A stretch of DNA of 63,139 nucleotides, filler included, from Parachlamydiales bacterium (GCA_020051075.1; 4 parts of 4 records of this genome joined end to end with filler, not necessarily neighbours in it), one strand, 5' to 3'; counted from the first letter of the whole stretch, positions 48,023 to 54,001 are shown. Numbers and translations are program-made. The notes: a model not told the origin generated them from the sequence alone.

Positions 48023-48315
48023 AAACAAGATAGACAGGATAAACAAAAAAACAGGATGGGCAGGATCGCTTCGCGGCAGGATAGGCAGGATAAACAAAAA
48101 AACAGGATAGATAAAGATAGTTAAAAATAGGAGAAAGGAACAGATGAAAATGATATATTTTTTTTATTTAACCTATCCTTTCCATCCTCCTTATCCTGTT
48201 TTTTTTATCCTGCCTATCCTGCCGCGAAGCGATCCTACCCATCCTGTTTTTTTGTTTATCCTGTCTATGTTGTTCTCTCCGTGCCCCTCTGTTCCTCTGT
48301 GTTTATCAGCGTTAA
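48023..48315. repeat. Family A palindromic element plus family C/E-like tail
   Basis: Inverted arms with the CGCTTCGCG core; CTCCGTGCCCCTCTGTTCCTCTGTG..GCGTT tail. Confidence 0.88.
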
Positions 48316-48395
48316 AAAGGGGGGAAGAGTTTTTTGCAGAAATTAATCTAGTATCGCCGTATAATTCCCTTTTTGTGAATATGAACGGATAGGAT

Positions 48396-49394: not shown

Positions 49395-50362
49395 TTATGA
49401 CTAAATTTTATAAAAGAATCGCTTGCTTGTTTCCTGGACAGGGGGCACAATACGTTGGAATGGCTTCCGATTTTTGCAGCAACTTCTCTGCGGCTCGGCT
49501 CACCTTCGAAGAGGCCGACACCCTCCTTGACCGTCCTCTCTCTTCGGTCATCTTGAATGGACCTGAAGATTCTCTCACAGAAACACGAAATAGCCAGCCG
49601 GCGATTTATGTTGCCAGCATGGCGATCTTCAGAGTTATTCAAGAGCTATTTGAGATTAAACCTTACCTGTGTGCTGGATTGAGTTTAGGGGAATATACAG
49701 CTCTGACAGCAGGCGGATGGCTCTCTTTTCTTAAAACACTCCCTCTCGTTCAGATGAGGGGGGATTTTATGAATGAAGCATGTGAAGCGACCAAAGGGAC
49801 AATGGCTGTCGTGATGGGGTTGGAGGGGGAAAAAGTCGAAGAGATCGTCCACGCTCTCAATATGCCGCATGAATTATGGATTGCCAATTATAACTGCCCT
49901 GGGCAAGTTGTCATTTCAGGGACAGCCAAGGCTATCGATGCTGCAACAGCAGCGGCTAAAGCAGGGGGAGCTAAAAGAGTTCTTCCTCTTCAAGTTCATG
50001 GCGCTTTCCACAGCGGGTTAATGCATCTGGCAGAAAACAAGCTCTCTCCATATATCAAGAACGCTTTCTTCTTGCAAGGCGAATCAGCCTTGGTGATGAA
50101 TGTTCCCGGAGATTTTGTTTCTGATTTAACACAATTGCGTCACAATCTCACTAAGCAGGTGACGCATTCAGTCCGCTGGGAACAGGGGATCCGTCGAATG
50201 GAAGATGACCACGTTGACCTCTATGTTGAGATAGGACCAGGAACCACCTTGTCAGGAATGAATAAACGGATTGGCGTTAAAGCACCAACGGTTTCGATCG
50301 GGACTGTTAAAGATCTCGATCAGCTCTCAAAGATGATCAGAGAAGGAGATCATGCACGATGA
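49391..50362 (+). CDS. fabD: Malonyl-CoA:ACP transacylase
   Basis: FPGQGAQ, GLSLGEY, GAFHS. Confidence 0.97.
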   Translation: MIMTKFYKRIACLFPGQGAQYVGMASDFCSNFSAARLTFEEADTLLDRPLSSVILNGPEDSLTETRNSQPAIYVASMAIFRVIQELFEIKPYLCAGLSLGEYTALTAGGWLSFLKTLPLVQMRGDFMNEACEATKGTMAVVMGLEGEKVEEIVHALNMPHELWIANYNCPGQVVISGTAKAIDAATAAAKAGGAKRVLPLQVHGAFHSGLMHLAENKLSPYIKNAFFLQGESALVMNVPGDFVSDLTQLRHNLTKQVTHSVRWEQGIRRMEDDHVDLYVEIGPGTTLSGMNKRIGVKAPTVSIGTVKDLDQLSKMIREGDHAR

Positions 50363-51111
50363 ACGATCTTTTAAAAGGCCAAGTGGCGATTGTGACCGGG
50401 GGTAATGCTGGAATAGGAAAAGCAATCTCTCAAAAATTAGCCGCTGAAGGAGCTCGGCTTGTCATCTTAGGAACCAATCAAGAGACAGGCGATGCTGCAG
50501 CAGCAGAAATTCGACAGCTTCACCCTGCTTCAGAAGCAAAATTTTTTTCTGTCGATATCTCTAAAACCAACTCTGTTGACGAAATCATCAAAAATGTCGT
50601 TGAGACTTATGGCCAAGTCGATATCTTAGTCAACAATGCAGGAATCACTTCCGATCAGCTTTTGATGAAGATGAGTGAAGAGGAGTGGGATCGGGTGCTC
50701 GATATCAACCTCAAATCGTGCTATAATACATGCCGCGCTGTTGTCCGTTCTATGATGAAGGCCCGCAAAGGGAAAATCATAAATATCAGTTCTGTTGTAG
50801 GGTTGATGGGCAATGCCGGACAGGTCAACTATGCCGCTTCGAAGGCAGGGATGATCGGGTTCACAAAGGCTCTCGCCAAAGAACTCGCCGCACGTAATAT
50901 CCTTGTCAACTGCATTGCTCCGGGGTTTATCCAAACGCGTATGACCGATGCCTTAAATGAGGCGCAGAAAACGTCTATTCTCCAACAGATTCCTCTCGGT
51001 AAAATGGGGCAGGTCGACGACATCGCCAATACCGTCTGGTTTCTAGCGACTCCTTTATCCAATTATATTACAGGTCAAGTCATCACCGTTGACGGGGGAC
51101 TCGTGATGTGA
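50359..51111 (+). CDS. fabG: 3-oxoacyl-ACP reductase
   Basis: TGGNAGIG, NNAGIT, YAASK, VDGG. Confidence 0.96.
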   Translation: MNDLLKGQVAIVTGGNAGIGKAISQKLAAEGARLVILGTNQETGDAAAAEIRQLHPASEAKFFSVDISKTNSVDEIIKNVVETYGQVDILVNNAGITSDQLLMKMSEEEWDRVLDINLKSCYNTCRAVVRSMMKARKGKIINISSVVGLMGNAGQVNYAASKAGMIGFTKALAKELAARNILVNCIAPGFIQTRMTDALNEAQKTSILQQIPLGKMGQVDDIANTVWFLATPLSNYITGQVITVDGGLVM

Positions 51112-51303
51112 GCGGTTCTAAGCTGAAATCTTTTTTAACGCAAAGAGGCAAAGAAGACGCAAAGAGGACCGGGATGGAATTTTAAATGGTATGGTAACAG
51201 TTACCCGATGGCCTGTAATTTATATTTTAACTTATCTTATTTCATTGACAGGTTAAATGCTTTGTTTTTAATATAGTTTTTTTCTTTGTCGGAGCAGAGG
51301 CTT

Positions 51304-53049
51304 ATGTTTAATTCTGTCAATTTATCAGAGATTCAAAGATTTGCTTCTACAACTTTACCTGATTTTTTTCGAGTGACCATCCCCATTAAATTTCATGGTG
51401 CACGAGAGATCGTCTTTAGCAAATTTGCGAATGCTAAGCCACAACAACAAAAAATTACGATTGTCGCTTTGGTTATCCTAACAATAGGGATTGTTTACTT
51501 AACGGCTGCATTTATTTGGAGAACTTTCCATCAACAAGGATCGAGCTTGTTGCCAGTTCTTCCATTACCGCAATCAACTTCACCACAACCTGCAGTCAGT
51601 CGACCACTTCCGAATTCGAACGCGCCCACCACAAGTTCAGCAGGATCTGGATCAGGGGCCGCAATAAAGCCGCCAGAACCGCCGAAACCTGTTGAGAAAA
51701 CAACACCGCCTCCTCGTCCATTAGAGACATCAACTTCATCTCAACCTGCAGTCAGTCGATCACTTCCGAATTCGAGTACGCCCACCACAAGTCCAGCAGG
51801 ATCAGGACCAGGGGCCGCAGTAAAGCCGCCAGCACAACCGAAACCTGCTCAGGAAACAACACAGCCCTCTCGTCCATTAGAGACATCAACTTCATCTCAA
51901 CCTGCAGTCAGTCGACCACTTCCGAATTCGAGCGCGCCCACCACAAGTCCAGCAGGATCAGGACCAGGGGCCGCAGTAAAGCCGAAACCTGATCAGACAT
52001 CTTCGCCCCCTCTCCCACCAAAGCCTGATGTGAGTCAATTGGGATTATGGTTTACAGTAAAGCCGGAACAAGCATCATCGAAACCTGATCAGACATCACC
52101 ACCCCCTCTTCCACCCAAGCCTGCAGTGATTCCATTGGGGTCTACTGTAAATCCGGAACAAGCACCGCCGAAACCTGATCAGACATCACCGCCCCCTCTT
52201 CCACCACAGAGAATCAATTCCATTCCACCACAGCCTACGGACAGTCAAAACGAACTGGGATCGACCGTGCCTGGTTCAAATTCAACGACATCATTGCCAG
52301 AACTTATTCTAGACGGTGACAAACCTCTTGCTGAGGTTTTAGGCCTAACGATTTCTGAAGTCCCATTCGTGTATATAAAAAAACCCAAGAGGATTGCTAA
52401 ACTCACTAACAAAATAAGACTAAAGCCGAAAGCAGATAAAAAATCTCCAGAGCAGAAACTTTCTGATGCATTTGAATGCCTTGCTCATCGGATTTTAACA
52501 AAAACTTCTTTCAAAGACTTCGAGAAAGAGGGATTAGTCCGCATTTCTCCACAAAAAGATGAGAAGGCTCGTTTGAAGGGGGCTTTGATCAACAATCGAC
52601 TGTTAGAAATAGAATTCAATGAGATTGAATTGGAAATGGCCATAGCTATTCTTAAGGATATCACTAGAGAGATGAATTTGTTGGGGGGAGATTTGCATAG
52701 CCGCGTGATCGAGTTGGGAGACAATTTCCTAAAACTCGAGTTGGAAGACAATCTCCAAAAAGAGGAAAGTGAAATTATTAGACAATTGCAAAAATTAGTT
52801 GATGCGTTGCCGACTGATCCGATTGATACGAAAAACCATTTAAAATTATTTATCTCTATTCTTTATGGTGTAAGTTTATCCTCTGAAAAAAATAGGATGC
52901 CAATTCGAAATATCGCTATCTCGATTAACGACGCATTAAGTTCACTTGATCTTTCGTCGCCGTCATGTTTAGATGACATGGAAAAGGTCCAGAAGTTCAC
53001 AGCAATGTTGATCACCTACTATCGTCAAGTCTTTCTTGAACAAAGTTAA
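51304..53049 (+). CDS. Membrane-anchored proline-rich protein with C-terminal RhoGAP-like domain (candidate effector)
   Basis: TM helix; 52-aa repeats; PPLPPKP motifs; EGLVRIS (Arg finger-like), ILKDITRE, SEKNRMPIRNIAI resembling RhoGAP blocks. Confidence 0.75.
   Translation: MFNSVNLSEIQRFASTTLPDFFRVTIPIKFHGAREIVFSKFANAKPQQQKITIVALVILTIGIVYLTAAFIWRTFHQQGSSLLPVLPLPQSTSPQPAVSRPLPNSNAPTTSSAGSGSGAAIKPPEPPKPVEKTTPPPRPLETSTSSQPAVSRSLPNSSTPTTSPAGSGPGAAVKPPAQPKPAQETTQPSRPLETSTSSQPAVSRPLPNSSAPTTSPAGSGPGAAVKPKPDQTSSPPLPPKPDVSQLGLWFTVKPEQASSKPDQTSPPPLPPKPAVIPLGSTVNPEQAPPKPDQTSPPPLPPQRINSIPPQPTDSQNELGSTVPGSNSTTSLPELILDGDKPLAEVLGLTISEVPFVYIKKPKRIAKLTNKIRLKPKADKKSPEQKLSDAFECLAHRILTKTSFKDFEKEGLVRISPQKDEKARLKGALINNRLLEIEFNEIELEMAIAILKDITREMNLLGGDLHSRVIELGDNFLKLELEDNLQKEESEIIRQLQKLVDALPTDPIDTKNHLKLFISILYGVSLSSEKNRMPIRNIAISINDALSSLDLSSPSCLDDMEKVQKFTAMLITYYRQVFLEQS
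51574..52207 (+). repeat. Intragenic tandem repeats
   Basis: 156-nt units starting 51574, 51730, 51886; three AAACCTGATCAGACATC units near 51985, 52081, 52171. Confidence 0.9.
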
Positions 53050-53741: not shown

Positions 53742-53745
53742 CAGA

Positions 53746-54001
53746 AACAGAATAGGCAAAAGGACAAAACAAGATAGGCAGGATCGCTTCGCGGCAGGAT
53801 AGGCAGGATAATGATGCAATCTTATCTCCCATTCTCCCTATCTTCCCCATCCTGTCAATTTTACAAGATGGGAAGGATAGGAAAGATAATGATGTTCACT
53901 TGAATGCTTCTATTATCTTGCCTATCCTGCCGCTTGCGATCCTGCCTATCCTGTTTTGCCCTTTTGCCTATCGTGTTTTGTTCCTTTTGCCTATCCTGTT
54001 A
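53746..54001. repeat. Family A palindromic element with nested inner palindrome
   Basis: Outer arms with CGCTTCGCG/CGCTTGCG core; inner CCCATCCTGT..ACAAGATGGG. Confidence 0.88.

Follow-up and report, generated by a model that had tools for sequence, protein, structure and literature searches.

Can an environmental chlamydia switch off the Rho GTPases of its host with a GTPase-activating protein of the host's own kind? The question is raised by an open reading frame (ORF) at 51304-53049 (+ strand), which encodes 581 amino acids without internal stops, in a Parachlamydiales bacterium (GCA_020051075.1). The window, i.e. the whole stretch of 63,139 nucleotides that was analysed, consists of four contigs (C2, C3, C5 and C7) of one Parachlamydiaceae assembly (2.94 Mb, 99.9% complete, 5.7% contaminated), separated by N spacers. 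A sequence-only reading had taken the product for an inclusion-membrane effector that recruits host SH3 proteins and inactivates Rho or Rac, an interpretation that is partly supported by the present analysis.

Our search, which was confined to the open-access literature, returned no paper devoted to a chlamydial RhoGAP. The term "RhoGAP" does not occur in the text supplements of PMC11077975, figure S4 of which may name chlamydiae; "Rho" does not occur in the main text of the Chlamydiae gene-gain paper PMC9816063, nor "GAP" in the body of the Legionella genus preprint. Database annotation assigns a RhoGAP domain to proteins of Simkania sp. (WP_420422533.1), Chlamydiales (MFI5343716.1) and the cultured species Parachlamydia acanthamoebae (WP_013924142.1), and the chlamydial domain is thus annotated there but apparently unstudied.

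Genomic setting of the gene

The features of the gene and its flanks are collected in Table 1. The gene follows fabG, as the earlier reading had it, and the best named relatives of this FabG (77% and 74%) are both Parachlamydiaceae records. A scan for promoter-like sites of the type listed gave 2 observed versus 1.2 expected in shuffles. Contig C5 ends 167 nt past the RhoGAP gene; therefore, yajC and the later genes are not its neighbours, and we rejected the genes past 53216 as such, the DNA there being another contig. Nine of the 16 matches of the repeat that closes C5 lie near contig ends, and the fragment folds no better than shuffles (z -1.2). A second, short family of dispersed non-coding repeats flanks the gene at 51112-51175, with 44 matches on 28 contigs.

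Table 1. Features of the RhoGAP gene and its flanks, in window coordinates
Feature	Position	Strand	Remarks
fabG (3-oxoacyl-ACP reductase), upstream neighbour, closes fabH-fabD-fabG	50359..51111	+	Pfam adh_short_C2 224 bits
Promoter-like site, sigma-70 type, TTGACA-18-TAATAT, 10/12	51245..51274	+	30 nt 5' of ATG; hint only
Whole gene P0001: leader, anchor, stalk, RhoGAP	51304..53049	+	ORF call; single RhoGAP copy of the genome
N-terminal leader, aa 1-85, predicted helical	51304..51558	+	common to three other genes; model helices 7-42
Predicted transmembrane helix, single, aa 51-72, not bilobed	51454..51519	+	hydropathy; model helix 46-77, pLDDT 87-92
Pro/Ser/Thr repeat, 156 nt (52 aa), 2.6 copies, 91% match; predicted disordered spacer	51573..51984	+	pLDDT ~42-58
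Second repeat, 90 nt (30 aa), 2.4 copies, three PPLPP cores	51981..52206	+	two cores match PxLPxK
PPLPP cores	52003-52023, 52099-52119, 52189-52209	+	within 30-aa repeats
Short ordered segment, aa 341-350, predicted packing on GAP domain	52324..52353	+	block pLDDT 80, bridge near residue 402
Polybasic segment right before GAP domain	52375..52440	+	aa 357-382: 11 K/R, 1 acidic; absent from the sequence-only reading
RhoGAP domain, aa 384-581	52453..53046	+	R413 finger (52540), K451, R455, N536, I539 kept; D543 at Pro398 position
Dispersed non-coding repeat closing contig C5; ~200 nt in mid-contig copies	53054..53216	.	16 matches of at least 100 nt, 16 contigs

On contig C7, nested inverted repeats with arms of 43, 24 and 22 nt follow yajC (53745-54000), and text resembling them lies at about 48140-48390 (look-alike shadow ORFs). 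Farther along the same contig (54019-62419, - strand), three big helical ORFs of 750, 791 and 928 aa have no Pfam match above cut-off, and a 180-aa gene amid them gives a weak CesT-like match (E 0.009); this stretch is a possible chaperone-effector cluster. A Pfam match to CdvA was discarded as lying below cut-off.

The contamination of the assembly and the closeness of the gene to a contig end would be expected if it were host DNA or a chimera, misassembled or misbinned. This is extremely improbable, however, as the gene is contiguous with chlamydial fabHDG and lacks introns, its leader is found on three genes of two other contigs and its flanking repeat on 16 contigs, the GC3 of the domain fits the genome (0.39 vs 0.42 +/- 0.08), and its sequence nests among chlamydial RhoGAPs. 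In addition, two other public DNA runs contain near-identical pieces of 223 nt and 151 nt at low depth. No RNA data set containing the gene was listed, plasmids gave no match to the protein, and NCBIfam has no family for it.

The position of the gene appears to reflect a rearrangement. Of the 20 family relatives compared (20 of 56 matches), 18 have fabG next to acpP and the other two have genes inserted between; adjacency is likewise seen in 50 of 54 named chlamydial loci, a set that overlaps with those 20. In this genome the junction is broken, and acpP lies on contig C63 after two helix-bearing PP2C genes. Genes are inserted at the junction in genomes G009 and G157 as well, so that it may be an insertion hot spot. 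In three relatives (three of five loci), a RhoGAP gene is found downstream of ccoN-ccoO at a distance of one to four genes; the ccoN-ccoO of this genome, on contig C93, is without RhoGAP trace. We infer that an old family gene moved to a rearranged junction and that its stalk was gained by tandem duplication. As to the acpP locus itself (G000:C63:56917-64942, L058), the flanking genes are effector-like: the two PP2C genes upstream have a single helix each and are accompanied by a CHLPS/hydrolase gene, and three related short genes without Pfam match lie downstream.

Membrane anchor and proline-rich stalk

The transmembrane helix that had been proposed for the protein coincides with its only hydrophobic uncharged run, 22 aa long (residues 51-72), flanked by a charge of +3 before vs +1 after. 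Inc proteins are defined by two helices or a bilobed hydrophobic domain (PMC3048545). A bilobed hydrophobic domain of 40-60 aa, with two helices less than 30 aa apart, is not present in the RhoGAP protein, and with its single helix it is therefore not a classical Inc.

The stalk (aa 80-335) is composed of 25% Pro, 16% Ser and 10% Thr and is without structure in the model. The 52-aa repeat is as the sequence-only reading had counted it, and its copies 1 and 2 differ by 14 non-synonymous and 2 synonymous codons. Contact of the polybasic segment with acidic lipids is possible, a role that we draw from p190/DLC1.

Three proline-rich cores are present as claimed, although not all of them as PPPLPP(K/Q): they read SPPLPPK, PPPLPPK and PPPLPPQ, so that only two contain PPPLPP and only two end in K. 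The latter, at aa 235 and 267 in a region modelled as disordered, match PxLPxK, the CrkII N-SH3 consensus (PMC10279719), and are thus of the class II ligand type. Two copies of this motif occur in only this ORF among 2430; these two are duplicates of each other, and one such motif arises by chance in 7.7% of 20,000 shuffled stalks. No other of the 47 complete family proteins has at least two PxxPx[RK] motifs, and a long SH3-ligand stalk is found in none of the 46 others. Between copies 2 and 3 of the 30-aa repeat, the cores differ by 2 synonymous and 0 non-synonymous changes and the flank by 2 and 7; between copies 1 and 2, the cores differ by 3 and 2 and the flank by 1 and 6. This distribution is a weak hint that the cores may serve as SH3 ligands. 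As for the SH3 recruitment asserted earlier, the match of two motifs to the CrkII consensus stands, but the claim goes beyond that match and the relatives lack the repeats. Recruitment of host SH3 proteins via PPLPPK is thus a tentative idea, rather doubtful at present, and the weakest step of the reading.

Fold of the C-terminal domain

The blocks EGLVRIS, LKDITRE and NRMPIRNIAI, on which the RhoGAP assignment had been founded, start at residues 409, 450 and 530. The match to the Pfam RhoGAP model (PF00620) reaches 32.3 bits, the cut-off being 24.5 (E 1.1e-7), and so places the domain beyond chance; relatives score up to 86 bits, which makes 32 bits low within the family. A single-sequence search of solved structures barely matches (ArhGAP20, E 0.49), but with a profile built from 37 family rows 43 PDB sequences are matched, every one of them RhoGAP or RhoGAP-like.

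The structure model of aa 384-581 reaches a pLDDT of 94 and a pTM of 0.90. The top Foldseek rows are all RhoGAPs, the best being Cdc42GAP/p50RhoGAP (1grn, TM 0.72), and a second structural aligner gives ArhGAP20 at Z 19.9 with an rmsd of 2.3 over 174 residues; a feature search of the ESM Atlas concurs (best 0.91, eukaryotic RhoGAP cluster). Across 1grn, 1tx4, ArhGAP20 (3msx) and GRAF (1f7c), the predicted fold, all-helical and of about 190 residues, is shared at Z 18-20 and rmsd 2.2-2.9. The Z-scores are lower for inactive RhoGAP-like domains (OCRL 15, p85 12-14), which does not show activity, and the next non-RhoGAP fold stands at 5.4. Therefore, the fold on which the sequence-only reading had staked its case is borne out by the model.

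The fold of YopE, SptP and ExoS is unrelated to that of RhoGAP and convergent with it in function. No YopE-type GAP domain is listed among the Pfam matches, the Foldseek chains or the rows of the second aligner, and the RhoGAP fold covers the entire C-terminal domain, in agreement with the contention that the protein is unlike this type. At the level of sequence family and predicted fold, the domain is thus confirmed as a RhoGAP of the eukaryote type. It differs from the eukaryotic RhoGAPs in being encoded by a bacterial gene, in its identity of about 20% and in the replaced PEPL, and a transmembrane helix and 250-aa stalk stand where the eukaryotic proteins have PH, BAR or SH3 modules.

Catalytic and GTPase-binding residues

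A review quoting Amin et al. 2016 names Arg282, Lys319, Arg323, Asn391, Val394 and Pro398 as determinants of p50RhoGAP (PMC8305018). We mapped these residues by hand via the profile alignment to 1ow3, in which R85 is Arg282. Five of the six are kept: R413 corresponds to the arginine finger Arg282, K451 to Lys319, R455 to Arg323 and N536 to Asn391, all four shared with eukaryotic RhoGAPs, and I539 is conservative for Val394. At the sixth position the Pro398-Asn pair is replaced by D543-A544, and GIF reads GLV.

To place these residues in the family, we counted the determinants on the 52 rows that were left when 3 duplicates and 3 rows taken to be eukaryotic had been dropped from 58 aligned ones. 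Retention is 48 for the finger, 49 for the lysine, 36 for R/K at 323, 43 for the Asn, 34 for V/I/L and 29 for the Pro. The retention of the finger in 48 of 52 rows points to selection on catalysis, and from these residues GAP catalytic activity appears probable.

The exceptions deserve attention since they would also suit an exported pseudo-GAP, i.e. a protein that binds to a host GTPase in its GTP-loaded state, or to some other partner, with no hydrolysis taking place, and acts as a trap or scaffold like p85 and OCRL. Asp stands at the Pro398 position both here and in the three closest homologues, GIF has changed to GLV, only 15 of the 52 rows keep all six positions, and p85 is inactive despite retaining an arginine, its determinants having been lost (PMC8305018). 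However, p85 is without most of the determinants, whereas this protein is without one of six; the model is closer to active GAPs (Z 19.9 vs 12-15 for p85/OCRL); and the Pro is missing in 23 of 52 rows, the finger in only 4. We therefore regard a pseudo-GAP as unlikely and retain an active GAP as the preferred assignment.

The RhoGAP family in chlamydiae

Of the 401 genomes of the phylum that were searched, 38 match PF00620 and 34 do so above cut-off, this genome among them, so that similar RhoGAP heads are present in roughly every twelfth chlamydial genome covered; these counts describe samples in which related genomes are not independent. The matches within its own family come from 9 of 46 genomes. 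Above cut-off, no match was found in 251 and 401 genomes of the phyla of the Verrucomicrobiales and Magnetococcales control genomes, respectively.

The best homologues are three metagenomic proteins, 34, 33 and 31% identical, all of which have one N-terminal helix and a short stalk at most; the leader matches the closest homologues weakly (E 0.002 and 0.016 in 189 sequences). In a quick core-domain tree, made without bootstrap and with an unresolved backbone, the RhoGAP protein groups with these three (SH-aLRT 97), and beside the group stands the RhoGAP of G009, the genome whose FabG is closest (SH-aLRT 87). A helix is predicted before the domain in 11 of the 47 complete family proteins, and 2 look bilobed. 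A word-based protein search for close relatives returned only the RhoGAP protein itself, and none of 167 candidate stretches in metagenome contigs is a close relative. Elsewhere in the family, L011, L018 and L022 (family f35) are RhoGAP proteins of ~800 aa with repeat-like N-terminal regions, and L027 (G225) and P0006 are among other architectures, namely two tandem RhoGAP domains and an Inc-like bilobed RhoGAP.

A reused N-terminal chassis and its export

The leader and helix recur in three further genes, two on contig C129 and one on C88 (phmmer E 3.9e-17, 3.6e-12 and 6.1e-9 among 2430 ORFs). An N-terminal helix with a Pro/Ser/Thr-rich follow-on is found in 14 ORFs, six of which carry RhoGAP, OTU, HECT, DSPc or PP2C (two); the remaining eight are ClpB-like, OmcB-like and, in six cases, without Pfam match. 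A single N-terminal helix occurs in 11 of 17 PP2C, OTU, HECT, DSPc and RhoGAP ORFs vs 73 of 1636 others, a comparison in which the five enzyme families were picked after seeing them, paralogues are not independent, and the count without the six seed ORFs is 6 of 11. PP2C and DSPc are found in ordinary bacteria too. OTU, HECT and RhoGAP are absent from 14 control genomes, and all six ORFs with these domains have a single N-terminal helix, two of the HECT matches lying below the Pfam cut-off.

Several side observations were made among these genes. The leader-sharing genes lie at G000:C129:14819-16150 (L059) and C88:1439-2596 (L060). One, of 96 aa, holds little besides the helix; another, of 318 aa, has an acidic Pro/Thr stalk and a CaaX-like box at its end, and is a possible two-membrane tether; the third, of 386 aa, has an unrecognised C-terminal domain of ~130 aa. 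CaaX-like ends number 5 among the 2430 ORFs vs 1.4 expected, and two large patatin-TPR proteins (G000:C50:5674-10059, L158; C53:12527-16177, L159), one with ankyrin repeats, both have them. Four HECT-like proteins, three of them in tandem, have one N-terminal helix each (G000:C34:1155-7039, C46:1060-2655).

Enzymes of the OTU, HECT and RhoGAP type need eukaryotic substrates, from which we infer that the C-terminal head faces the host cytosol. The three matches to PF00071 in the genome are IF-2, Der and LepA; thus, no small GTPase substrate of its own was found. A type III export gate is encoded on contig C38 (SctV, 888.8 bits vs a cut-off of 692), this being the sole subunit looked at, and export of the RhoGAP protein by the type III route seems highly probable. 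A second export-gate gene, above the FlhA cut-off, lies at G000:C107:38163-40133.

If the protein were instead retained, its helix would sit in the bacterial inner membrane, the domain would have no substrate, and the gene would be a drifting relic. The charge difference across the helix suits inner-membrane insertion, and both the mostly non-synonymous changes of the 52-aa repeat and the divergence of the domain (34% to its best match) would fit drift; yet the reading frame is uninterrupted, the catalytic residues are retained, the model of the fold is of high confidence, members of the family survive in 34 of 401 genomes, and the OTU and HECT proteins, which need host ubiquitin, have the same layout. 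Retention in the bacterium is accordingly judged very unlikely.

Discussion

On balance, we favour the explanation that the gene encodes a protein with a single membrane pass, exported through the type III system, and that its RhoGAP head likely turns off host Rac/Rho near the vacuole from the cytosolic side. Once secreted, it would lodge in a host membrane, most likely that of the inclusion, with the head turned to the cytosol, and would there accelerate GTP hydrolysis by host Rho/Rac GTPases. Around the vacuole, Rac/Rho would then be locally inactive, and actin assembly or phagosome maturation would be damped in a protist host. The stalk would extend the range of the head, and the polybasic patch would direct it to acidic lipids.

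A precedent for the layout is provided by Cdu1 and Cdu2 of C. trachomatis (ChlaDUB1/2; CT868/CT867), which are also non-Inc proteins that couple a single N-terminal transmembrane helix to an enzyme directed at the host, and whose linker is proline-rich. The RhoGAP protein has the same order of N-terminal helix, low-complexity linker and C-terminal host-directed enzyme; the Cdu enzyme is a deubiquitinase, not a GAP, and the likeness is one of layout, taken from descriptions. With this helix at the N-terminus, both Cdu proteins get to the host cytoplasm and are located at the inclusion membrane (PMC6717882). By their example, one N-terminal helix would suffice for an inclusion-bound enzyme, and the inclusion is slightly favoured over another membrane as the site. 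The effector role at the inclusion membrane that had been proposed thus stays plausible by analogy with Cdu1/2, although the bilobed Inc hallmark is absent.

C. pneumoniae SemD likewise joins a membrane anchor, a proline-rich SH3 ligand and a Rho-pathway module on flexible linkers (PMC11344771). SemD mimics active Cdc42, turns actin assembly on and uses an amphipathic helix, whereas the chlamydial RhoGAP would switch the GTPase off. Since SemD pairs its anchor and SH3 ligand at entry, and Cdu2 reaches the plasma membrane too (PMC6717882), an active exported GAP might also work at the entry stage or at another host membrane (plasma membrane, ER or mitochondrion). It might as well have a non-classical target: the changed helix 540-545 sits in the GTPase-binding face, and one RhoGAP-family protein is described as acting on ARF6 instead (PMC8305018). 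However, K451, R455 and N536 correspond to Rho-binding determinants (PMC8305018, PMC12240320), and a true transmembrane helix suits the Cdu1 precedent better than the amphipathic helix of SemD. We consider this group of alternatives decidedly unlikely, and Rac/Rho at the vacuole remains the preferred target and site.

Among other bacteria, a gene with a RhoGAP motif is described in Legionella micdadei (lmi0037; PMC4256840) and Sec7-RhoGAP proteins in non-rickettsial bacteria (PMC11077975). The GAPs of YopE, SptP and ExoS and Coxiella CirA are injected and switch off host Rho GTPases by an arginine finger, and the known bacterial Rho GAP effectors are described as YopE/SptP-like (PMC6021133). 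If the chlamydial protein is active, a bacterial GAP of eukaryotic fold would be a second route to the same end, by acquisition of the host's regulator.

It is conceivable, if a little short of probable, that chlamydiae possess widespread unstudied effectors that silence Rho/Rac by the host's RhoGAP fold, with a shuffled chassis that puts RhoGAP, OTU, HECT and phosphatase heads on the vacuole and, in this protein, with SH3-binding repeats directing the GAP to actin adaptors of the host. If so, single-pass inclusion effectors would form a class discarded by the bilobed-Inc rule: Inc searches drop single-helix proteins (PMC3048545), which suggests that enzymatic effectors of the vacuole may be missed. 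The homologue in cultured P. acanthamoebae makes the family testable now. With members in 34 of 401 genomes, it is common enough to bear on the ways in which environmental chlamydiae govern actin and escape digestion in protists.
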